From: Pyrinomonadaceae bacterium
GTDB lineage: Bacteria; Acidobacteriota; Blastocatellia; Pyrinomonadales; Pyrinomonadaceae
Assembly (NCBI GenBank): GCA_035942915.1
Contig: DASZCR010000271.1
Location: forward strand, 1-57,957
Reading direction: 5' to 3'
Length of the DNA stretch: 57,957 nt
Made by a program: the position numbers and the translations under genes. Of this stretch, positions 2,511-56,938 are shown one piece after another (within the stretch, counting starts at the first letter, position 1; each line of letters starts with the position of its first letter). The notes below the pieces were generated by a model. That model was not told where the DNA came from and did no database searches. It worked only from the letters and a program-made list of their open reading frames with translations.

Positions 2511-3334
2511 CGCCGGACACGAGCACGCCGCACGCGCAGGCGACCGCAGCGGGCGCGGGCGCCGCCGCGCCAATGACGCCCATCCTGCGCACCACGAAAT
2601 GCACCATCCGCTTCGGCGGCCTCGTCGCCGTCAACGAACTCGACATGGCCGTCCGCCCCGGCGAAATCTACGGCCTCATCGGGCCGAACGGCGCGGGCAA
2701 AACCACCATCTTCAACCTGCTCACAGGCGTCTATACTCCGACCTCCGGCGAGATACATTTTCAGGGAGAGCGCATCGACGGCCGCCGTCCCTACGAAATC
2801 GCCGCGCGCGGCGTCTCGCGCACGTTTCAGAATATACGTCTGTTTCCGAGCATGAGCGTGTTGGAGAACGTCATGACGGCCTGCCACATACACACGCGGC
2901 AGAGCCTCGTCGATGCCATCCTGCGCACGCCGCGCTACGGTCAGGACGAGCGCGAGCACGAAGAGTTCTGTCTCGAACTGCTCGAAATCTTCGACCTCGC
3001 GCGCTTCCGCGATGAAGGCGGCACGAGTCTGCCTTACGGCAACCAGCGCCGCCTCGAAATCGTCCGCGCGCTCGCCACGCGCCCCAAACTGCTGCTCTTG
3101 GACGAACCGGCCGCCGGGATGAACCCTGCCGAGCAGGACGACCTCCTCAACCTGATTCACCAGATACGCGACCGCTTCGGTCTCACCATCCTTCTCGTCG
3201 AACACAACATGAAGGTCGTGATGGGCGTCTGCGAACGCATACAGGTGGTTGACTACGGCAAGTCCATCGCTCTGGGGCTGCCCGAAGAGATTAGGAACGA
3301 CCCCAAGGTCATCGAAGCGTATCTGGGAGACTGA
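2507..3334 (+). CDS. livG: branched-chain amino acid ABC transporter ATP-binding protein LivG
   Basis: Walker A GPNGAGKTT, LPYGNQRRLEIVRAL, Walker B LLLLDEPAAGMN, C-terminal VIEAYLG. An alternative start at the internal Met (2573) is possible. Confidence 0.9.
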   Translation: MTPDTSTPHAQATAAGAGAAAPMTPILRTTKCTIRFGGLVAVNELDMAVRPGEIYGLIGPNGAGKTTIFNLLTGVYTPTSGEIHFQGERIDGRRPYEIAARGVSRTFQNIRLFPSMSVLENVMTACHIHTRQSLVDAILRTPRYGQDEREHEEFCLELLEIFDLARFRDEGGTSLPYGNQRRLEIVRALATRPKLLLLDEPAAGMNPAEQDDLLNLIHQIRDRFGLTILLVEHNMKVVMGVCERIQVVDYGKSIALGLPEEIRNDPKVIEAYLGD

Positions 3335-7297: not shown

Positions 7298-7313
<16 letters not shown>

Positions 7314-7447: not shown

Positions 7448-8503
7448 ATGGTAACGAGGGTTGAGGTTGACAAGGTCGGGTCGGCGGCGTCGGGGCTTGG
7501 ATTGGAGAGGTCTCTGACGGTGACGCGCGAGGCGCGGAAGGTGCGCGCGGGCGACGTGCTGGTGGTGCGTGCGCTGACCGACAGCGCGACCTACAACCAG
7601 TTGGAGTTGCCTTCGGGGCGTCTGGCGAAGATTAATCCGGGCGATGTGCTCGTCGGCGTGCTCGGCAGTCGCCGCGCGCTCAAAGGTTTCGTCGGAGACG
7701 TGCCGGAGGCGGTCGCCGAGGGCGACGAATTGCACCTCCTGAACATGGGCGGCGTCGTCGGCCGTTGCACGGGTCATCATTCGAGTCTGAGCGATGCCAT
7801 CCGCGTGCGCGTCCTCGGACTTGCGTGCGATGCGCGGGGCGAGCGCGTGCACAACATCTCGGACGGCGCGTTGCCGCTGCGCGAGAGGCTGGGCGCGAGC
7901 GCGCCGCTCGTCGTCGTCGCGGGAGCGTGCATGAACAGCGGCAAGACGTTTGCGGCGACGGAGATAGTCAGGCAGGCGACGCGGCACGGTTTGCGCGTGG
8001 CGGCCGGAAAACTGTCGGGCGTCGCCTGCCTGCGCGACACCTTGAACATGGCCGACCATGGCGCGGTGGCGACCGCGAGCTTTCTCGATTGCGGTCTGCC
8101 TTCGACGGTCGGCGTCGGCGACCTTGCGCCCGTCGCGAAGGCCGTCGTCGCGCGTCTCAACGAGTGCGCGCCCGACCTCGTCGTTATCGAACTGGGGGAC
8201 GGCATCCTCGGCGGCTACTCTGTGGATTCCGTGTTTGACGATGCGGAGTTGCGCGCGGCGACGAGCGCGATTGTCTTCTGCGCGTCGGATTACGTCGGCG
8301 CGTGGGGAGGCATCGAGTTGTTTCGTCGCAGAGGCTTGCGCGTGGACGTGGTGGCCGGGTCTGTCACCGACTCGCAGATGGGCGAGGACTACATCGAACG
8401 CGAGTTCGACGTTCCGGCCGGAAATGCCAAACGCAACGGTGCGCGGCTCTTCGAGTTGATTCGCCCGAAGATTGTCGGCAGCAAACTCGAAGTCGCCGCA
8501 TAG
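7448..8503 (+). CDS. uncharacterised P-loop (Walker A-like) protein embedded in the arg operon
   Basis: 351-aa ORF with protein-like composition, unlike the R-rich antisense ORF 7391-8551. It has VVVAGACMNSGKT, later LVVIELGDG (a Walker-B-like strand plus acidic residue), and an N-terminal ~150 aa that is beta-rich with no motif I recognise. It lies between argG and argC on the same strand, and its stop is 22 nt before the argC ATG. Confidence 0.7.
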   Translation: MVTRVEVDKVGSAASGLGLERSLTVTREARKVRAGDVLVVRALTDSATYNQLELPSGRLAKINPGDVLVGVLGSRRALKGFVGDVPEAVAEGDELHLLNMGGVVGRCTGHHSSLSDAIRVRVLGLACDARGERVHNISDGALPLRERLGASAPLVVVAGACMNSGKTFAATEIVRQATRHGLRVAAGKLSGVACLRDTLNMADHGAVATASFLDCGLPSTVGVGDLAPVAKAVVARLNECAPDLVVIELGDGILGGYSVDSVFDDAELRAATSAIVFCASDYVGAWGGIELFRRRGLRVDVVAGSVTDSQMGEDYIEREFDVPAGNAKRNGARLFELIRPKIVGSKLEVAA

Positions 8504-12724: not shown

Positions 12725-12787
12725 ACCCGCTGCCAGATTTCTCAAACTTCTCTTTGCGCCTCCGCCATCTTTGCGCGAAACTTCTGC

Positions 12788-13960
12788 TTGATGAAAGAAG
12801 AAGTTTCGCGCAAAGACGTTAAGGCGCAAGGGAGGTTGAGCGAGTTCGCGCGTCGTTTGCGTCAGGAGTGGCGGCGGCGTGGTTGGCGCGAGTCGGGCGG
12901 GCGCGTGGTCTGCGCCGTCTCCGGCGGCGCAGATTCGACGGCGCTGCTGCTCGGCCTCGCAGAGTTGTTGCAGACGGGGCGGCTCGCTTTCGACGTAACG
13001 GTCGCGCACCTCGACCACGAGTTGCGCGGCGAGCGTGCGCGTGAGGATGCGGCGTGGGTGGAGGCTCTGGCGCGCGAGTTGGGCTTCGAGTCCGTCATCG
13101 GGCGCGCGTCGGTCGAAGCGTCTGCGCGGGAGCGTAAGGACAATCTCGAACAGGCTGCGCGGCGTACGCGTTACCGTTTCCTCTCTGAGACGGCGAGAGA
13201 GAGAGGGGCATGGGCAGTCGTCGTCGGTCACACGTCGGACGACCAGGCGGAGACCCTGTTGCTGCGCCTCGTGCGCGGAAGCGGCGCGCAAGGGCTGGCC
13301 GGGATGCGTGCCGAGCGTGTGCTTGACGAAGGGGAAGGGCCAGAGGCGCGACCGGATGATGATGAAGAGGAAGATGCTTCTCATCATCCTTCTCGGTCGC
13401 CGGTCTGGTTGTTGCGCCCGCTGCTCGGTTGGGCGCGTCGCGCCGAGACGCAAAAGTACTGCGCCGCGCGCGGGGTAGCGTGTCGTGTTGACGAGATGAA
13501 CGAGGACGAGCGTTTTGCGCGCGTACGTGTCCGGCGCAGGTTGTTGCCGCTGCTTGAGACTTTCAATCCGCGCGTCGTCGAGGCGCTCGTGCGCGCGTCC
13601 GAAATTCTGGCCGACGACTCACAGGCGATAGACGAAGCAGCCGCGCATCTGCTCGAAGCGGCGCGCGCCGAGCCGGTTGCAAGCGAGAGCGTGGGCGCGC
13701 AGGCGTGGCCGCTAAGGGTCGAGGCATTGAGCGGGGCGAGTGCGGGGCTGCGGCGGCGCGCGTTGCGCCTGTGGATGGCGCGCGGTCGCGGCGATTTGCG
13801 GCGCGTCGAGATGGCGCACGTCGCGGCCGTCGAGCGTCTGTTGACGGGCGAGCGGGGCGGGCGCGTGGCGGAATTGCCGGGCGGCAGCCGCGTCGAACGC
13901 AGGCGCGGCCGTCTCGTCTTTCATGGGAAAAGAGTTGAAAAAGGCACACACGGCATTTAG
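12788..13960 (+). CDS. tilS: tRNA(Ile)-lysidine synthetase
   Basis: PP-loop SGGADS in VCAVSGGADSTALL. 390 aa with an acidic insertion (DEGEGPEARPDDDEEEDASHH). Lies in a tilS-hpt-ftsH arrangement. Confidence 0.8.
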   Translation: MMKEEVSRKDVKAQGRLSEFARRLRQEWRRRGWRESGGRVVCAVSGGADSTALLLGLAELLQTGRLAFDVTVAHLDHELRGERAREDAAWVEALARELGFESVIGRASVEASARERKDNLEQAARRTRYRFLSETARERGAWAVVVGHTSDDQAETLLLRLVRGSGAQGLAGMRAERVLDEGEGPEARPDDDEEEDASHHPSRSPVWLLRPLLGWARRAETQKYCAARGVACRVDEMNEDERFARVRVRRRLLPLLETFNPRVVEALVRASEILADDSQAIDEAAAHLLEAARAEPVASESVGAQAWPLRVEALSGASAGLRRRALRLWMARGRGDLRRVEMAHVAAVERLLTGERGGRVAELPGGSRVERRRGRLVFHGKRVEKGTHGI

Positions 13961-14587: not shown

Positions 14588-14784
14588 CCGGGTGAGCGGA
14601 TGCGGGCGCAACTTGGCCGCGCGCGTGGGCATCCAAAGAAGGCCGCAAACCAACGGCGCAGGTCGTGCGTAAAAGTATGGCAATCCGGCGCACGTGCGGC
14701 GGCCGTCAACGGGTGGGTTGGAAGCTTTGGAGCGACAAGTGATGCCGAAATGGGTTATTATCGGCGTCGGAGGCGAGAAAAATT

Positions 14785-16710
<1,926 letters not shown>

Positions 16711-16719
16711 GCGGCAGAC

Positions 16720-16813
16720 GGTCAAAGGTCAAAGACCAAAGGCAAAAGTTGAGAGGCTACGTCCTCCTGACTTTTGCCTTTTTACTTTTGCCTTCTTTAG
16801 ATTACTTTTGACC
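16720..16813. repeat. heptamer-periodic palindromic element, GGTCAAA word
   Basis: GGTCAAA GGTCAAA GACCAAA GGCAAAA - loop - TTTTGCC TTTTTAC TTTTGCC TTCTTTA GATTAC TTTTGAC. It fills the ftsH-folP gap and ends 1 nt before the folP GTG. Confidence 0.85.
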
Positions 16814-16814
16814 T

Positions 16815-17678
16815 GTGCAACAACTCGTCTGGAAAACGGGGCGACGGACGCTCACGCTCGGCGCGCGCACGCTCGTCATGGGCGTCCTCAACGTGACGCC
16901 CGACAGCTTCAGCGACGGCGGCCGTTTCTTCGACGCGGCACGCGCCGTCGAGCGCGCCGAGCGAATGGTTGAAGAGGGCGCGGACTTGCTCGACGTAGGC
17001 GGAGAATCGACGCGGCCGGGCGGCGCAGCCGTCGAGGTTGAAGAAGAGCTGCGCCGCGTCGTGCCGGTCATCAAAGCCATCGCGCGGACGGTCTCCGTGC
17101 CCGTCTCAATCGACACGACGAAGGCGCGCGTCGCACGCGCCGCGCTCGACGCGGGGGCGGAGATTGTTAACGACATCTCGGCCTTACGGTTTGAGCCGCA
17201 TCTGGCGGACGAGGCGGCACGCACGGGCGCGGGACTCGTCCTCATGCACTCGCGCGGGACGGCCGATGAGTTGCACACTCGGCCGCCGTCGGCCAACATC
17301 TGGAAAGAGATGGCCGAGAGCCTGCATGGCAGCATCTCGGAAGCGAGGCGGCGCGGTGTGGCGCGCGAGTGCATCGCGCTCGACCCCGGCATCGGCTTCG
17401 GCAAGACGCAGGAGCAGAACGTCGAAATAATCGCGCGCCTCACGCGCTTTGCAGATGCCTTGCCGGGCTATCCGGTTCTCATCGGCACATCGCGCAAATC
17501 TTTCATCGGCCGCCTGCTGGGCGGCGCTGCCGTCGATGAGCGTCTGCATGGCACGATGGCGACCATCACGGCCGCCGTCCTCGCAGGCGCGCACATCGTC
17601 CGCGTCCACGACGTGCGCCCCGCCGTCGAGACCGTCCGCGTCGCAGATGCGCTGAAAGCAGTGATAGGTGATAGGTGA
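16815..17678 (+). CDS. folP: dihydropteroate synthase
   Basis: GVLNVTPDSFSDGG and DVGGESTRPG pterin-binding motifs. GTG start. The last five codons and the TGA stop lie in the repeat at 17661-17763. Confidence 0.9.
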   Translation: MQQLVWKTGRRTLTLGARTLVMGVLNVTPDSFSDGGRFFDAARAVERAERMVEEGADLLDVGGESTRPGGAAVEVEEELRRVVPVIKAIARTVSVPVSIDTTKARVARAALDAGAEIVNDISALRFEPHLADEAARTGAGLVLMHSRGTADELHTRPPSANIWKEMAESLHGSISEARRRGVARECIALDPGIGFGKTQEQNVEIIARLTRFADALPGYPVLIGTSRKSFIGRLLGGAAVDERLHGTMATITAAVLAGAHIVRVHDVRPAVETVRVADALKAVIGDR

Positions 17679-17763
17679 TGGGTGATAAGTGATGGGTGAT
17701 AGGAAGAAAACAGGATTTCTCCTATCACCTATCACTTATCACCTATCACCATTCTCTTATCAC
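17661..17763. repeat. heptamer-periodic palindromic element, GTGATRG type
   Basis: Six G-units, core GAAGAAAACAGGATTTCTC, four C-units, CATTCTC, one C-unit. Confidence 0.9.
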
Positions 17764-17849
17764 CTGTGTTTTACTTGTCACTCGTGACTGCATTATCGTA
17801 TCGTGCCACGTCTTGGAGTTGGGAAGATGCGTTGTGAGGTAGAGTCGAA

Positions 17850-18419
17850 ATGATTTTCAGAGGCAGGTTTTGGCGGGGAGCGGCGTTGGCCGTGTTGCTG
17901 TTGTCGGCGACGGGGTTTACGGAGTGCTACAAGCCGGTGACGCGTAGCGGCATGCCGAGGCACATTCGCAGGGTGGCCGTGCCCGCCTTTCAGTTTCAGG
18001 ACAACGCGCTGCGCTTCAAGGTCGAGTCGCGTTTCACGGAAGCTGTCAGCAACGAGATTATCCGGCGCGGCAAGGGGTTGCGCGTGCAGAGCGAGCGCGA
18101 GGGCGCGGACGCCGTCGTCGAAGGCTCAATCAAAAACTTCGGTTTCTACGGCGTGCTGCTGCAACCGAACGACCCGGCCACGCGTGCGCGCATCTTCGAG
18201 GTACAGATTACGGCCGCCATCACCGTGCGCGACCAGGTGGAAAACCGCGTCCTCTACGACAATCAGAACTATCAGTTTCGCGGCGAGTTCGAGTTCACGC
18301 GCGACCCGCGCAGCTTCTTCAACGAGGAAGACCCGGCCGTGCAGCGCATCGCGCGCAGCTTCGCCGAAAGCCTCGTCTCCACGCTCGTCAACGGTTTCGG
18401 AGTCAACGAAGAGAAGTGA
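17850..18419 (+). CDS. lptE: LptE-like outer-membrane lipoprotein
   Basis: Signal peptide ending in a Cys (SATGFTEC), 189 aa. It sits immediately upstream of, and overlaps, holA, as in the lptE-holA arrangement. The similarity is judged by eye only. Confidence 0.6.
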   Translation: MIFRGRFWRGAALAVLLLSATGFTECYKPVTRSGMPRHIRRVAVPAFQFQDNALRFKVESRFTEAVSNEIIRRGKGLRVQSEREGADAVVEGSIKNFGFYGVLLQPNDPATRARIFEVQITAAITVRDQVENRVLYDNQNYQFRGEFEFTRDPRSFFNEEDPAVQRIARSFAESLVSTLVNGFGVNEEK

Positions 18420-19941: not shown

Positions 19942-19971
19942 TTGACACCCGCGAGTGACGTGTTGTAGCGT
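19942..19971 (+). promoter_or_regulatory. possible promoter for the phoH-ybeY-corC unit
   Basis: TTGACA (19942-19947) - 18 nt - TAGCGT (19966-19971). If real, transcription starts downstream of the track start 19955, implying a later phoH start codon. Confidence 0.3.
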
Positions 19972-21040: not shown

Positions 21041-21111
21041 GTCATGGGTGATGGGTGATGGGTGATAAGAGAAAAGCTGTTTCCCGTCAGCCTTCACCTC
21101 TCAGCCATCAA
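21041..21111. repeat. decayed GTGATRG-type element (4 + core + 4) overlapping the ybeY 5' end
   Basis: GTCATGG GTGATGG GTGATGG GTGATAA - GAGAAAAGCTGTTTCCC (core, overlapping the first C-unit by 2 nt) - CCGTCAG CCTTCAC CTCTCAG CCATCAA. The right arm is degenerate. Confidence 0.7.
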
Positions 21112-24311: not shown

Positions 24312-24785
24312 ATGGCGAAGAAAATCACGGACGAACAGCCGCGCGTCTATTTCGATTGCTCGAAGTGTCCGGCCTTCTGCTGTTCGGTCTACGAGCGCGT
24401 CCAGACGAGCGACCGCGACATCACGCGTCTGGCAAAACACTTCGGCGTCTCTTTTGACACGGCGCGGCGGCGCTACACGAAGATGTACGAAGGCGAGCGC
24501 GTGCTGCGGCGCGTCAAGGACGAAATCTTCGAAGAGACCTGCATGTTCCTCAATCAGGAGACGCGCGGCTGCGGCATCTATCATGCGCGCCCGGCCGTCT
24601 GTCGCGAGTACCCCGACCGCGTGCGTTGCGCCTACTACGACCTGCTACAGTTCGAGCGCCGACAACAGGACGACGAATCGGTCATCCCCCTCGTCCAAAT
24701 CACCTTCCGACAGGTGAAGAAGGCGGAAGTCTCGGACGAACACGGCAGCGAAAAGATTTGGGAATGGAAACCGGAAAAGCGTTGA
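24312..24785 (+). CDS. YkgJ-family cysteine-cluster protein (CxxCxxCC)
   Basis: FDCSKCPAFCC plus a downstream GCGIYHARPAVCREYP. The stop TGA (24783-24785) lies in the first unit of the repeat. Confidence 0.75.
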   Translation: MAKKITDEQPRVYFDCSKCPAFCCSVYERVQTSDRDITRLAKHFGVSFDTARRRYTKMYEGERVLRRVKDEIFEETCMFLNQETRGCGIYHARPAVCREYPDRVRCAYYDLLQFERRQQDDESVIPLVQITFRQVKKAEVSDEHGSEKIWEWKPEKR

Positions 24786-24905
24786 TAGTTGATAAGAAGA
24801 AAGTGATGGGTGATAGGTGATAGGTGATAGGAGAAGAACAAGTTTTCTCTTATCACCTATCACCTATCACCTATCACTCTTGTTCTATCACCTATCACCT
24901 ATCAC
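24782..24905. repeat. heptamer-periodic palindromic element, GTGATRG type, nested/composite
   Basis: TTGATAG TTGATAA, GAAGAAA, four G-units, core GAGAAGAACAAGTTTTCTC, four C-units, TCTTGTT, three C-units. Confidence 0.9.
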
Positions 24906-24925: not shown

Positions 24926-25150
24926 ATGGGCGAGTTTCTGGCAACAATGATTGGGCGGCGTTTGGACGTGTTCTGCGGAGGGAATGCTTCCTTGCGCGGC
25001 GAGGTGTTGAAGGTCGAGGGCGGCGTCTTGCACCTGAGGGACGACGAGGGGCAGACCTGTTACGTGGCGATTGAACGCATCGCCGTCGTCTGGGAGGCGC
25101 GCGACAGCGAGCGGCCGAACGCCGGTTTCGTCTCGCACCCCGTCAAGTAA
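24926..25150 (+). CDS. small hypothetical protein (Sm-like/DUF2642-like beta pattern)
   Basis: 74 aa. MIGRRLDVFCGGNASLRGEVLKVEGGVLHLRDDEGQTCYVAIERIAVVWE resembles small beta-barrel proteins. A strong terminator hairpin follows. No family is confirmed. Confidence 0.5.
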   Translation: MGEFLATMIGRRLDVFCGGNASLRGEVLKVEGGVLHLRDDEGQTCYVAIERIAVVWEARDSERPNAGFVSHPVK

Positions 25151-25183
25151 GGGCGCGGAAAAAGAGTTGTAGGAAAAAAGTTG

Positions 25184-30274: not shown

Positions 30275-30325
30275 AAACTTTGCGCCTTTGCGTGAGATGA
30301 AGTTTCACGCAAAGGCGCAAAGTTT
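30275..30325 (+). terminator. perfect 21-bp hairpin terminator
   Basis: AAACTTTGCGCCTTTGCGTGA - 9-nt loop - TCACGCAAAGGCGCAAAGTTT followed by TT. It lies between convergent genes. Confidence 0.75.
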
Positions 30326-39533: not shown

Positions 39534-39544
39534 AAGGATGAAGA

Positions 39545-39694
39545 ATGGTAAATGGTAAATGGTGAATAGTAAATGGTGATGTGTGGTGATAAGTGATAGA
39601 TGATAAGTGATGGGCGATAGGAGAAGGACTGTTCTTTCCTATCACCTATCACCCATCACCTATCACTCCGCACTTATCACTCATCACTTATCAC
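39545..39694. repeat. hybrid heptamer element: ATGGTAA-word block fused to a GTGATRG-type palindrome
   Basis: ATGGTAA ATGGTAA ATGGTGA ATAGTAA ATGGTGA, then GTGATAA GTGATAG ATGATAA GTGATGG GCGATAG, core GAGAAGGACTGTTCTTTC, four C-units, TCCGCAC, three C-units. It lies between the divergent cyclase and mqnA genes. Confidence 0.9.
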
Positions 39695-39767
39695 TTCCTT
39701 GCGGCGGGGCGGAGGTGTGCGTTAGCATCGAAGGAGGGAAGAAGAGAAGCGAGATGGCGGACGACGA

Positions 39768-45158: not shown

Positions 45159-48287
<3,129 letters not shown>

Positions 48288-49034
48288 GTTCGGAAAACTG
48301 TCTCCATGAAAAATCGCGGCGCGCCTCGCCTGCCACAAAGAGTTGCGGCGGCGGAGTTGTGCGCGCGTCCGCTCAGGTTAAAAGTGTGCGACGCGCGACG
48401 GCACGACGGCGCGGCGACGCGTGCGCGGCCTGCGAGCTTACGCGAAGTAAGCGAGGCGCGAGCGTGCGGCGCGCGTGCGCGCGTTCGTATTGAGCGCAGC
48501 CCGTGTGGCCGACGCTCTCTGTCTGTGTGTTGGAATGGATGACGCTTGCGCCTCGCGCGACGCTCGCGGGGCGCCCGGACAGAGGAAGGTAGACTTCCTC
48601 CGTGCGAAAGCAGGATGGACTATTCACTTAACAAAAACCCCGTGCGGAAGGCCGCGCCCGATTGGCGACCGCGAGCCTGCGACCTGTGCGGGTCGAAGCT
48701 TACTCGACGCGTGCGCGTCAGTTCGCGCAGGGTTTGCGTCGAGCAAAGCCTGCACGACCGGCCTCTCTAGCGGAAGGGAAGTGCGGCGGCGAAACAGTTC
48801 GCTTGAACTCCCGCGCATTTCCACCTCGCGCTGGCGGCAGCGGCTTCCGTACATTTCAAAGAGAGATGAAACTTGCGAGGCCGCTTCAGGGTTGGTCAAG
48901 ACCGTCTCCGCAGCGGCTCGCTCAAACTTTTTGTCCCGTCAATTTCAGGGCGCGCACACGCGCGTCGCGCCGTGCCGGAAAGTTGTCAGATTCAGGCAAA
49001 AAGGACAGGCAAGCCGGAGTATAGCCGGAAAAGT

Positions 49035-49114
49035 GTCTAAAGTCTAAAGTCCGGAGTCTAAAGTCCGAGACCGCAGTCTTGGCGACTCCCGACTGTGGAC
49101 TTCAGACTTCAGGC
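49035..49114. repeat. heptamer-periodic palindromic element, GTCTAAA word
   Basis: GTCTAAA GTCTAAA GTCCGGA GTCTAAA GTCCGAG - loop - TCCCGAC TGTGGAC TTCAGAC TTCAGGC. It lies immediately downstream of the rodA stop (49122-49124). Confidence 0.8.
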
Positions 49115-49121
49115 TGAGAGT

Positions 49122-50243
49122 TTAGTTGACGAATCTTCTCAGGCGGACGCTGATGGCGAAGCCGATGGCGACGGAGGTGGCGAGGATGGCCGAAAGCCCC
49201 GCGCTCATCAGCGGCAGCGGGACACCGATGACGGGCAGGAGTCCGAGCGTCATCCCGACGTTGATGAAGATTTGGAAGGCGAGGCCGCCGACAATCGCCA
49301 TGATGACGAGCATCCCTGTCCTGTCGGGCGCACGCCGCGCGCCCGAAATCAATTTCGAGAGTAGGACGACGTAGGCCAGCAGGAGCAGTATCGTGCCGAA
49401 GAAGCCGGTCGTCTCGGCCGTCGCGGCGAAGATGAAATCGGTGTGCGGTTCGGGCAGGAATTTGAGACTGCTCTGCGTGGCTTCGGCCGAAGTGTCAGAG
49501 CCGGTCAAGCGCCCCTTGCCGACCGTCAGTATCGACTGCCATGTGTGATAGCCGAAGCCGCGCCGGTCTGCGTTCTCCGGGTCGAGGATGACGTTGATGC
49601 GCTCCTGTTGATAGCCCTTGATGACTCCCGCCTCGACGCCCACGACGTAAGCGGCCGGGATAGCCAACGTCGCCAGCACGAGCGCCGCGACGACAATCCA
49701 CATGCGGATGGAGGAGAGAAAGAGGACGACGGCGAGCAGCGGCATGTAGGTGATGGCCTGTCCCGCGTCCGGTTCGAGCAGAATGAGACTGACGGGCAGC
49801 GCGAGGATGGCGACTCCCATCAGCATCTCTTTGATGGTCAGCGTCGAGTGGCGCGGGCGACCGAAGTAGCGCGCCAGCATCAGCACCGTCGGAATCTTGA
49901 CGAACTCAGAGGGCTGGAACGTGCCGAGACCCGGAATCATAATCCACGCCTGCTGCCCGTTGACCTTATGACCGATGCCCGGAATGAGCACGAGCACGAG
50001 CAGGATGAGGCCGAACACGTAGAAGGCCGGAGCGAAATGGATAATCTTGCGATAGTCCGTGAAGGCGACGCCGAGCATCACGACCATCGAGATACCGAGG
50101 CCGATAAGCTGCTTTTTCCAGTAATTCATCTCCGGCTGCGCGTTGTAAATCTGCCACGTGCCGAAGATGGCAATCGCCACCGCCAGCAGCGTCAGAAACC
50201 AATCGAAGTCGCGCAAGCGCCTGTGTTCGAGAATGGCAACCAT
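49122..50243 (-). CDS. rodA: SEDS peptidoglycan polymerase RodA
   Basis: 373-aa polytopic FtsW/RodA/SpoVE-family ORF located after mrdA in the mre/mrd cluster. Confidence 0.9.
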   Translation of the reverse strand: MVAILEHRRLRDFDWFLTLLAVAIAIFGTWQIYNAQPEMNYWKKQLIGLGISMVVMLGVAFTDYRKIIHFAPAFYVFGLILLVLVLIPGIGHKVNGQQAWIMIPGLGTFQPSEFVKIPTVLMLARYFGRPRHSTLTIKEMLMGVAILALPVSLILLEPDAGQAITYMPLLAVVLFLSSIRMWIVVAALVLATLAIPAAYVVGVEAGVIKGYQQERINVILDPENADRRGFGYHTWQSILTVGKGRLTGSDTSAEATQSSLKFLPEPHTDFIFAATAETTGFFGTILLLLAYVVLLSKLISGARRAPDRTGMLVIMAIVGGLAFQIFINVGMTLGLLPVIGVPLPLMSAGLSAILATSVAIGFAISVRLRRFVN

Positions 50244-50261
50244 AAAATCTCAGGCTGACAG

Positions 50262-50343
50262 GTGATAAGTGATAGGTGATAAGTGATAGGTGATAAGAGA
50301 AGAACCCGTTTTCTCCTATCACCCATTACCCATCACCCATCAC
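50262..50343. repeat. heptamer-periodic palindromic element, GTGATRG type
   Basis: Five G-units, core GAGAAGAACCCGTTTTCTC, four C-units (CTATCAC CCATTAC CCATCAC CCATCAC). It contains the mrdA stop codon (50340-50342). Confidence 0.9.
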
Positions 50344-52232
50344 CTGTTTTGAGCTATCTGTTGCGGCGGCGGCAGCAGTTCGGGGTGAGTCTTGCCGACG
50401 TAGACATCGTAGACGGCGCGGACGGCCGGAGCGGCGAAGGTGCCGCCGAAGCCGACGTTTTCGATGAGCGCGATGGCCGAAATCTCCGGCTTGTAGGCCG
50501 GTGCGACCGAGACGAACCACGCGTGGTCTTTGTTCTCGCCAACGTCCTTGCCGAGCGAGACGACCTGCGCCGTGCCCGTCTTTCCGGCAATCTCGAAGCC
50601 TTCCATCTTGATGCGTCCGGCCGTGCCGCCCGCGTTGACCACGTCGTACATGCCGTCCATCACGATGCGGTATTGCTCTTCGGTCATCGGGATAATCTTC
50701 GGGTCAGGTCGGTCGAACCCGCGCTTCGGCCGTTCGGGGAAAGGCCCGATGGCGTGCATCGCGCGCGCCTCCTTCAACAAGTGCGGCACGTAGAGTTTGC
50801 CGCCGACGCCGATGGAGGCGACGGCGCGCAGCATCGCAATCGGCGTGGCGAAGTCGTAGACCTGACCGAAGGAGGCGTAGACGGTGTCGATGTCTCGCCA
50901 TTCGGGGTCGCGCGGGTTGAAACGCGCCTTGAACTTGCGAGAGGGCGTCCAACTAATCAGTTCGCGCGGGAGGTCGATGCCGGACTTCCTGTTAATCTCG
51001 AACTCGTTGACCATCTCCTCGATGCCTTCGAGCCGCATCTTGAGGCCGAGGCGATAGAAGTAGCCGTCGCAGGAGTGCTGGATGGCGACGCGAACGTTGG
51101 GCGAGCCGTGACTGCCCATGCAACGCGTGAACTTGTTGCCGATGGTGATGCCGCCGCCGCAGACGAGGTTCGAGTTCTTGACCGTAATCGCGCCCTGCTG
51201 AAGACCGGCGACGGCCATCGGAATCTTCCACGTCGAGCCGGGAGGATAACGGCCGCGAATGGCGCGGTTGGTGAGCGGCGCTTTCGGGTCTTTCAGCAGG
51301 CGGCGCGCCTCAGCGCGTCCCTCCGGCGTGTTGATGCGTTGCGAGAAGATGTTCGGGTCGAAGGTGGGATAGGAGGCCATCACCATCACTTCGCCGTTGT
51401 TCGGGTCCATTGCGATGATGACGCCGCGCTTTGAAGGCGAGTTGCGCAGTTGCTCTTCGGCCGCCAGTTGGAGGTCGAGGTCGATGGTGGTGACGATGTC
51501 TTGACCGGGCTGCGGCTGGACGGTTTCGAGTTCGCGCTGAATCTGTCCGCGACTGTTGACCTCGACCTTGCGATAGCCGTCGCGCCCGCGCAGGTAGTGG
51601 TCGTAAGTCGCCTCCAAGCCCTCCTGCCCGATGATGTCGCCGGGGCGATACGGGTTCTCCTGACTGTCTCGATACTTGGGCTGCTTCAACTGCTCCGGGC
51701 TGATTTCGCCGACGTATCCGAGGACGTGCGCCAGCACGCCGTTTTCCGGGTAGCGGCGCTGCGGCTGCTCGCGGATGGAGAGTTCGGGAAACTCCAATTG
51801 GTGGGCTTCGACCCACGCGATATCGGCGCTGTCGGCGTTCTCCTTGACGGGAATGTACTCGAAGGCGGGCTGCGACTTGACGGCCTCGAACTGCTCGCGC
51901 AGGAGGTCTGGGTCGAGCGCCAGCCCTTCGGAGAGCGGCTTGACGAGGGCGTTGAAGTCCTTGTTCTTCATGTCCTCGCGCGTCAGCACGACGTTGTAGA
52001 TGGAGCGCGAGTCAACGAGCAGTTTGCCGTTGCGGTCGAAGATTGCGCCGCGCGGGGCGGGGATGGGCAGCAGACGGATGCGCTGGTTCTCGGCGCGCTC
52101 GGCGTAATACTCGCCGTTGACGACTTGCAGGTAATAGAGCCTGACGCCGAGCACGACGAGCAGCACGACGACGAGCACCTGAATCACCGTCAGGCGCAGA
52201 CGCAGGTTTTGCGATTCGTCCTCAAATTTCAT
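50340..52232 (-). CDS. mrdA: penicillin-binding protein 2 (elongasome transpeptidase)
   Basis: 630 aa with an N-terminal TM segment, SxxK in PPGSTWK and KTGT in AGKTGTAQ. It lies between mreD and rodA. Confidence 0.9.
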   Translation of the reverse strand: MKFEDESQNLRLRLTVIQVLVVVLLVVLGVRLYYLQVVNGEYYAERAENQRIRLLPIPAPRGAIFDRNGKLLVDSRSIYNVVLTREDMKNKDFNALVKPLSEGLALDPDLLREQFEAVKSQPAFEYIPVKENADSADIAWVEAHQLEFPELSIREQPQRRYPENGVLAHVLGYVGEISPEQLKQPKYRDSQENPYRPGDIIGQEGLEATYDHYLRGRDGYRKVEVNSRGQIQRELETVQPQPGQDIVTTIDLDLQLAAEEQLRNSPSKRGVIIAMDPNNGEVMVMASYPTFDPNIFSQRINTPEGRAEARRLLKDPKAPLTNRAIRGRYPPGSTWKIPMAVAGLQQGAITVKNSNLVCGGGITIGNKFTRCMGSHGSPNVRVAIQHSCDGYFYRLGLKMRLEGIEEMVNEFEINRKSGIDLPRELISWTPSRKFKARFNPRDPEWRDIDTVYASFGQVYDFATPIAMLRAVASIGVGGKLYVPHLLKEARAMHAIGPFPERPKRGFDRPDPKIIPMTEEQYRIVMDGMYDVVNAGGTAGRIKMEGFEIAGKTGTAQVVSLGKDVGENKDHAWFVSVAPAYKPEISAIALIENVGFGGTFAAPAVRAVYDVYVGKTHPELLPPPQQIAQNR

Positions 52233-56797: not shown

Positions 56798-56805
56798 AAA
56801 GACAG

Positions 56806-56924
56806 GTGATAGGTGATGAGTGATAGGTGATAAGAAAAACAGCAGTCAGTTGTCAGTCGTCGGTTAAGGATGATGAGAGGCGCGCTGTTTTCCGTCTTAT
56901 CACCTATCACCCATCACCTATCAG
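56806..56924. repeat. GTGATRG-type element with a ~42-nt insertion at the apex
   Basis: Four G-units, GAAAAACAG | CAGTCAGTTGTCAGTCGTCGGTTAAGGATGATGAGAGGCGCG | CTGTTTTCCGTC, four C-units. The insert carries xxGTCAG heptamers and a GGATGATGAGAGG piece. Confidence 0.85.
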
Positions 56925-56938
56925 TAGTTTCCTCAACA

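Follow-up and report, generated by a model that had tools for sequence, protein, structure and literature searches.

Intergenic hairpins with arms of tandem 7-nt units at the ftsH–folP junction and other gene junctions of a Pyrinomonadaceae genome and its acidobacterial relatives

The gap between ftsH and the dihydropteroate synthase gene folP in a Pyrinomonadaceae bacterium (Acidobacteriota; assembly GCA_035942915.1, contig DASZCR010000271.1, whose 57,957 nt are the window analysed here) is filled by a hairpin whose two arms are tandem arrays of 7-nt units, and we found that hairpins of this plan, built from many different heptamer words, recur between the genes of the window and in related genomes. 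We read them, with a confidence that only modestly exceeds even odds (about 0.55), as phylum-wide intergenic heptamer palindromes, the counterpart of the STRR (short, tandemly repeated, repetitive) elements of cyanobacteria, which change length by slippage and multiply by copy-wise spread. An initial annotation of this DNA, made from the sequence alone, had proposed that the conserved property is the period-7 hairpin rather than one sequence, and this proposal has held: 52 hairpins with period-7 arms carry 38 different words, more than 100 different words occur in the related genomes overall, and orthologous gaps differ in the word that they contain.

The comparison set comprised 137 sequences, that is, the window of 58 kb and 136 loci of at most 22.6 kb each (80 ftsH loci, L001–L080, and 56 rodA loci, L081–L136), with the best FtsH and RodA relatives (83% identity) being metagenome-assembled genomes (MAGs) of Pyrinomonadaceae and Acidobacteria gp4 and soil metagenome contigs. 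The window derives from a Pyrinomonadaceae-like soil acidobacterium; of the short sequence words sampled from it, one public soil metagenome run holds 83%, and two metatranscriptomes hold just conserved ones of ftsH. The suspicion that periods 5–9 might be equally common was addressed by a word-agnostic scan of the window together with the 80 acidobacterial ftsH loci (1.53 Mb), which counted 0, 1, 7, 98, 13, 15, 3, 1 and 4 tandem runs for periods 4 to 12, respectively, so that period 7 clearly dominates (98 vs. 1–15); likewise, the 56 rodA loci contained 44 period-7 runs and at most six of any other period. Among 130 long hairpins, besides the 52 with period-7 arms, periods 8 to 12 accounted for 9, 10, 3, 1 and 2. 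A complementary partner array was present within 160 nt for 102 of 180 period-7 arrays (57%), compared with 0/37 for period 6, 6/20 for period 8 and 6/30 for period 9, and no such partner appeared in the reversed-sequence control. Period 7 is therefore dominant but not exclusive, given that periods 8–10 show the same plan at about one fifth of its frequency. Per 100 kb, the window holds 29 period-7 runs, Pyrinomonadaceae-like loci hold about 10, the remaining Acidobacteriota 4 and unrelated taxa 0.3, and shuffled sequence has none.

Inside the window, Tandem Repeats Finder (TRF) assigned period 7 to each of the four loci for which this architecture had been described with unusual words, all four matched their earlier description on reading the sequence, and TRF, folding and shuffle controls together bear that claim out. 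There are 17 period-7 runs in the window, compared with 0–1 at each of the other periods between 3 and 12, and 20 dinucleotide shuffles of it gave no period-7 run. The arrays, in which TRF also recognises higher-order repeats of 14 nt and 35 nt, use at least five distinct words, all of them between open reading frames (ORFs), with GTGATRG as the dominant word and GGTCAAA/AAAAGGY, AGTCTRR, GGATGAR and AATGGTR as minor ones.

The ftsH–folP hairpin (+ strand) has its 5' arm at 16720–16757, reading GGTCAAA GGTCAAA GACCAAA GGCAAAA before the apex starts (4.0 copies, 80% matches by TRF), and its T-rich 3' arm at 16776–16813, made of TTTTGCC and TTTTTAC units in the order TTTTGCC TTTTTAC TTTTGCC ...TTTTGACC with the conserved insert TTCTTTAGATTAC (3.9 copies, 75% matches), ending 1 nt before the folP GTG at 16815. 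Its 38-nt arms are just 71% complementary, the weakest stem among the four; its minimum free energy (MFE) on the + strand is −43.3 kcal/mol (z = −4.8), and 0 of 200 shuffles folded as well. The GTCTAAA/AGTCTAA hairpin (49035–49114, − strand) begins 7 nt past the rodA stop codon, sets GTCTAAA x4.4 (75% matches) opposite GACTTCA x2.1 in the TRF output, and has arms of 24 nt and a loop of 25 nt; its MFE is −40.0 kcal/mol with z = −4.55 for the + strand and −41.4 kcal/mol with z = −4.33 for the − strand. The GGATGAG hairpin (1318–1404, core 1321–1401, + strand) fills the gap between the livH-like and livM-like genes, whose flanking stop ends at 1315 and whose next start lies at 1413, and has by far the lowest z-score (MFE −65 kcal/mol, z = −12.8). 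Its perfect 28-bp stem, or 31-nt arms at 97% complementarity, stands as first described, but its units are not uniformly GGATGAG: each arm has four, of which the third reads CGACGCG and just the other three resemble GGATGAG (70–72% matches by TRF). Finally, an AATGGTA/AATGGTG block of 4.9 units (39544–39577, + strand, 85% matches) is fused 5' of a GTGATRG hairpin with inverted repeats at 39586–39696 (+ strand) in a divergent gap, and in the predicted fold this block pairs through G·U pairs with the outer part of the GTGATRG 3' arm. For comparison, a GTGATRG hairpin lies at 50258–50347 (− strand) in the mrdA–rodA gap.

The initial annotation had treated the four words as different and had asked whether the rarer ones share the apex of the main family, and here the answer is divided. 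The GTGATRG copies share the apex GAGAAAAC-NNG-GTTTTCTC, which the apex of the GGATGAG element resembles so closely that, among 109 control apexes, only 1 reaches its score, and GGATGAG itself is one substitution away from a rotation of the GTGATGA variant; this element is a diverged member of the GTGATRG family. AATGGTA differs from AAGTGAT by two transitions in each unit (ATGGTAA vs. GTGATAA), and the block looks like a mutated unit re-amplified in one arm. These two words are accordingly near-variants of the main word and not independent of it. The GGTCAAA and GTCTAAA apexes, in contrast, do not match the GTGATRG family apex, and on sequence grounds both are separate families; a derivation of GGTCAAA from GTGATRG was considered and rejected, given that the best rotation agrees at 5/7 positions, which is the chance level over 14 comparisons.

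The idea that the odd-word loci of this window might be the sole non-GTGATRG cases was not borne out, since GGATGAR, AATGGTR and AGTCTRR all recur in other genomes: GGATGAR in hairpins of L009 and L083 and in an array after ftsH in L014; AGTCTGG/AGTCTAG in a hairpin upstream of ftsH in L004; and AATGGTR in hairpins of L012 and L081 (two in the latter) and in arrays of L019, L087 and L113. Locus L081, the closest relative (RodA 83%), has AATGGTR in two of the three hairpins of its single 4.5-kb contig, which makes this the apparent main word there. These L081 copies have a conserved core of their own and sit in the mreC–mreD and mrdA–rodA gaps, where the window carries GTGATRG. Between mreD and mrdA, which are 20 nt apart in the window, L081 has a GTTTTCA hairpin. 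In other relatives the mrdA–rodA gap holds other words or is reduced to 2–6 nt, and between the genes at 21055 and 21668 L001 has TCGTAAA in the place of the window's GTGATRG. Nevertheless, the words are not free, for identical words are shared between loci in 29 pairs versus 8.4 ± 2.8 expected, with a maximum of 20 in 2000 simulations, and hence there are families that recur across genomes beyond chance. As to their composition, of the 80 distinct words of the window and L001–L080, 33 contain TGA/TCA against an expectation of 19 (z = 3.6), and 14 contain CTGA/TCAG against one of 4.9 (z = 4.2); an array of TGA-bearing heptamers puts a stop codon in all three frames because 7 is coprime to 3.

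Against this background of exchange, L001, L004 and L015 have orthologues of the ftsH–folP hairpin, which can thus be aligned across four genomes whose FtsH proteins are about 80% identical. The left-arm segment AAAGGCAAAAG is invariant in the three orthologues, the right-arm segment CTTTTGCCTTCTTTAG is conserved in L001 and L004, and all four genomes preserve the consensus stem, although the alignment, of few sequences, contains a single pair with a double change. We consider this element to be old, because it remains alignable at this FtsH distance while the other gaps of L001, L004 and L015 do not align with the window. GGTCAAA or GTCAAAA also follows ftsH in the distant loci L045 and L046, and quite different heptamers occupy that spot in other lineages.

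How such arrays change is best seen in loci L093 and L094, whose rodA genes are 89% identical and where an orthologous array differs by an exact 7-nt indel, which demonstrates slippage in 7-nt steps; this is the whole-unit copy change between relatives that characterises slippage-prone simple sequence repeats. In the same gap, a homogeneous array of GTGATGA x4 in one member of the pair corresponds to a decayed array in the other. In addition, at about 9400–9470 of L093 a 64-nt non-periodic hairpin resembling repetitive extragenic palindromic (REP) sequences (CCCCGTGAGATAG...TATCTCACGGGG) is inserted in the 3' heptamer array and is absent in L094; a second copy of this REP-like hairpin lies downstream of the L093 rodA gene. 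The GTGATRG hairpin at 56798–56938 carries, exactly at its apex, a 42-nt insert with three GTCAGTT-type units and a GGATGATGAGAGG stretch, and since this insert holds heptamer units, one heptamer element is nested in another here. Copy-wise spread of the families is strongly suggested by the non-repeat cores that copies share, by orthologous gaps that hold a hairpin in some relatives and none in others, and by the nested insertions. Phages are, as the data suggest, no obvious vehicle for the hairpins, since viral contigs contained both of the searched words as tandem arrays (14 and 48 stretches) almost never accompanied by a complementary partner. Thus, among the mechanisms tuned to a period of 7 that had been envisaged at the outset, 7-nt stepping is documented by the exact indel and copy-wise spread has evidence in its favour, but no evidence was obtained for a binding protein.

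Based on these observations, we propose the following behaviour. The arms lengthen and shorten in 7-nt steps by slipped-strand mispairing, with homogenisation of the units within an array, as the L093/L094 pair shows; re-amplification of a mutated unit can make the word of an arm drift, of which the ATGGTAA block (GTGATAA with two transitions) and the GGATGAG arms on a GTGATRG-type apex are snapshots; families would be copied to new gaps, and the copies would survive almost exclusively between the stop of one gene and the start of the next. Most likely, the preference for 7 comes from the slippage process itself, as Mrazek and colleagues proposed for heptamer repeats at large, and it probably does not reflect a reader of any particular word.

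The positions of the hairpins agree with this last step. In the window, at a density of about one hairpin per 4 kb, they occupy the stop-to-start gaps of co-directional genes, namely, two liv gaps, the ftsH–folP gap and the junctions of the mre-mrd-rodA genes; in mreB-mreC-mreD-mrdA-rodA there is a hairpin at four of the five cistron junctions, the exception being the 20-nt mreD–mrdA gap. The upstream cistron of the ftsH–folP pair (14785–16710, + strand) matches NCBIfam TIGR01241 with 878 bits and the downstream one (16815–17678, + strand) matches TIGR01496 with 309 bits; NCBIfam confirms FtsH, dihydropteroate synthase (FolP), RodA, MrdA and MreB, and for the liv genes the LivH and LivM models match best but under their curated cut-offs, so that we refer to LivH-like and LivM-like ABC permeases. 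In two cases, at 7313 and 17678, the hairpin supplies the upstream stop codon, the latter being that of folP, which falls within the next GTGATRG hairpin beginning at 17661. Across 37 relatives the mrdA–rodA gap measures 2–6 nt in the seven tightest loci and has a median of 95 nt where it holds period-7 arrays, which start a median of 2 nt past the stop codon and end a median of 11 nt before the start codon, and in those array-bearing mrdA–rodA gaps whose sequence was inspected no Shine–Dalgarno sequence was visible. We infer from these positions that the palindromes may be tolerated because their folding brings the stop and start codons side by side, which would leave translational coupling and operon function intact.

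By analogy with known systems, the transcribed heptamer stem-loops would probably act as intercistronic RNA structures, either as 3'-end stabilisers or as partial attenuators. The U-rich, old and conserved ftsH–folP element is, on the same analogy, the best candidate for a selected role. REP elements are known to stabilise upstream mRNA.

Several points weigh against this proposal. Periods 8–10 also build such hairpins, so that 7 is a preference and not a rule. Slippage alone explains neither the complementarity of the arms nor the recurrence of words in distant lineages, and the bridging of stop and start codons by the stem is deduced from positions. Tests for selection on the transcribed strand gave no significant result: the sense strand folds better in just 8 of 12 elements and the antisense strand in four, and mismatches on the sense strand are G·U in 23 cases versus A·C in 14 (p = 0.19). 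As for known RNA elements, no Rfam family matched at its gathering score anywhere in the window, and the only match within 48300–49140 was a weak one to sbcD RNA (E = 0.21).

The alternative that survives best, which we regard as possible though unlikely, is that these hairpins are non-autonomous mobile elements of the kind of MITEs (miniature inverted-repeat transposable elements) or REP doublets forming hairpins (REPINs), moved by a trans-acting enzyme such as a hairpin-recognising transposase, with the period of 7 as the footprint of the protein and with an enzyme variant for each word family. The family-specific cores (the GTGATRG apex and the AATGGTR core of L081), the different families in the same orthologous gaps together with their presence/absence variation, the foreign heptamer segment placed exactly in the apex of the 56798–56938 hairpin, and the words common to distant lineages beyond chance, including the TAACTGA of Beggiatoaceae, cyanobacteria and Bacteroidetes (PMC4679880), are all expected under such mobility. 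But the 11 GTGATRG elements have neither target-site duplications, in the form of direct repeats flanking them, nor constant termini, which is at odds with MITEs; their ends read ACAG|GTGAT... without the GTAG head, and their arms are periodic and of variable length, both between copies and between the two arms of one copy, which separates them from REPs and REPINs. Moreover, no transposase was recognised among the 10 window ORFs searched, and an exact 7-nt indel and the homogenisation of units require no enzyme.

A bolder version, which we hold to be doubtful, is that an undescribed dedicated system makes or moves heptamer-arm hairpins, with specificity encoded in the word and with a preference for stop-to-start gaps as targets; it would operate in Acidobacteriota and perhaps also, where words such as TAACTGA are shared, in cyanobacteria, Beggiatoaceae and Bacteroidetes. 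If true, it would constitute a new class of very small mobile element and would explain the heptanucleotide excess of bacteria.

Slightly more doubtful still is selection of the arrays as sites bound by a protein whose register on single- or double-stranded nucleic acid is 7 nt. Translational regulators like S1, Csp or CsrA would be examples, and the hairpin would gate access. Such a protein would fit 3' arms that end a median of 11 nt before starts in gaps where no Shine–Dalgarno sequence was seen on inspection (mrdA–rodA), the enrichment of TGA (z = 3.6) and CTGA (z = 4.2) among the words, and the long conservation of the ftsH–folP element, and MacGregor (2015) made the same proposal for the TAACTGA repeats; however, more than 100 words, at least five of them in the window, would need many proteins or a sequence-blind reader, the words swap freely at orthologous gaps, the corresponding gap is array-free in many relatives, and the strand asymmetry expected of an RNA site was not found (23 vs. 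14, p = 0.19). Lastly, it is very improbable that these are ordinary features, that is, chance palindromes or plain intrinsic terminators that look periodic, for in spite of the U-rich 3' arm of the ftsH–folP element, the CACUUUU after the rodA element, and the relatives in which the same word makes a canonical terminator (such as L012) or in which a canonical terminator follows ftsH (many of them), shuffles lack period-7 runs, folding z-scores range from −4.3 to −12.8, a terminator consensus scan of 16500–17900 and 48300–50400 called no heptamer hairpin, most elements lie inside operons between essential cistrons (mreB, mreC, mreD, mrdA, rodA), and the A+T-rich stems (relative to the genome) of 24–60 nt are far beyond the short G+C-rich stems of terminators.

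The proposal of slippage and copy-wise spread gains from comparison with known repeats, of which the closest are the cyanobacterial STRR sequences, where the hupS–hupL gap is occupied by hairpins of 7-bp units that have been suggested to stabilise transcripts or to serve translational coupling (PMC2670836); according to a citing source, STRR sequences also occur inside a helix of a structural RNA, the RNase P RNA (Vioque 1997). Both systems have tandem 7-bp units, several intergenic and often intercistronic words per genome, and arrays that can form hairpins with complementary arrays. They differ in that the host here belongs to the Acidobacteriota (Pyrinomonadaceae) and not to the heterocyst-forming cyanobacteria of the strict definition, in that the words are others, in that the palindromic arrangement is the majority (57% of arrays), and in that here there is one word family with a conserved non-repeat apex and hairpins in almost every gap of some operons. 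The acidobacterial hairpins are hence an STRR analogue in another phylum and not strict members of the class.

More generally, heptamers are, as later papers report the original survey, the commonest long simple repeat, for which polymerase slippage was proposed as the cause (Mrazek et al. 2007, via PMC4679880 and PMC4692102), and the GGGAATC and GGGGAYT repeats of Xanthomonas and Nostoc include some inverted pairs (Rehm et al. 2015; PMC4692102). The likeness lies in the over-representation of heptamers among 5–11-nt repeats, their intergenic position, and their presence in the same gaps of related species with variable length and sequence; those repeats are, however, mostly single direct arrays, the G-rich ones having been studied as quadruplex formers, whereas the acidobacterial arrays are mostly paired stems and not quadruplex-prone. 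In marine Beggiatoaceae, cyanobacteria and Bacteroidetes, TAACTGA forms direct repeats (MacGregor 2015; PMC4679880), and there, as in our set, arrays stand a few nucleotides upstream of starts in gaps devoid of a canonical ribosome-binding site. Among the acidobacterial words CTGA is enriched, and TAACTGA itself builds a hairpin in the mrdA–rodA gap of L098 (about 2960–3030). "Maribeggiatoa" nonetheless has 169 direct sets, one indirect (inverted) repeat and one dominant word, compared with the many words and the inverted pairs that are the norm in Acidobacteria. REP sequences, bacterial interspersed mosaic elements and REPINs of Enterobacteria and Pseudomonas are likewise abundant intergenic palindromes of conserved families, located between co-transcribed genes and at operon ends, and these families spread within genomes, as described for REPINs (PMC3116915); their arms are not tandem-periodic, and neither the GTAG head of REPs nor the cognate REP-associated tyrosine transposase was seen here. 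In the literature library searched, no paper links Acidobacteria with heptamer or heptanucleotide repeats.

Some neighbouring features were also recorded. After rodA, the next gene encodes an RNase E/G homologue of 1059 aa (45159–48338, − strand), preceded by a 783-nt non-coding stretch (48339–49121) with a promoter-like TAGACT-17-TATACT at 49046–49018 (− strand), whose −35-like TAGACT overlaps the 3' arm (− strand) of the GTCTAAA hairpin. In L087–L089, L095 and L099–L101, too, a TATACT box stands downstream of rodA and has a conserved GCTCGCCCCTGCGGAG motif behind it, which suggests a conserved rne promoter and a long leader. A small ORF of about 74 aa (24927–25151, + strand) follows the hairpin at 24783–24905, so that this hairpin, too, is intercistronic and does not lie between convergent genes; the ORF is in turn followed by a G+C-rich stem-loop (GGCCGGTGTC...GACACCGGCC).

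Repeats of other periods were noted as well. A second hairpin family with units of about 9 nt (CTTTGCGCC TTTGCGTGA ... TCACGCAAAGGCGCAAAG) is present in the window at 12745–12825 and 30275–30325 and in L004 at 14653–14732, the copy at 30275 lying in a convergent gap with a T run after the hairpin. Period-9 repeats (CGCGAATCG x6) with inverted symmetry at 46484–46552 are inside the RNase E/G coding region and probably encode a repetitive peptide segment, and an AACACG x12.5 hexamer array at 93–167, inside the gene for a small predicted lipoprotein (MKKSKLAAIVAGTALAAFTAACGG..., 6–194, + strand), encodes Asn-Thr/Asn-Ala dipeptide repeats. In L001 a long tandem array with a unit of about 22–23 nt (like GCGGGGCGCGAAAATTGGCTTGC) extends over 7990–8430, flanked by genes orthologous to those at 19955 and 21055 of the window; at that position the window itself has just three ATGGGTG units.

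Since 2007 it has been known that heptanucleotide repeats are in excess between bacterial genes, a finding still unexplained, and cyanobacterial STRR hairpins have been without an assigned function since 1990. For the annotation of acidobacterial MAGs there is a practical consequence, since the hairpins can supply stop codons, as they do at 7313 and 17678, and break short-read assemblies; in the soil metagenome run mentioned above, the contigs end at hairpins. In summary, this acidobacterial lineage offers a very dense natural system, with many words, with orthologous gaps that differ and with an ftsH–folP element kept across genera, in which it becomes testable whether the 7-nt step stems from the replication machinery, how arm complementarity is maintained, and whether the stems are used or are neutral passengers that are tolerated because of their folding, the possible uses of such long intercistronic stems being mRNA stability, attenuation and translational coupling.

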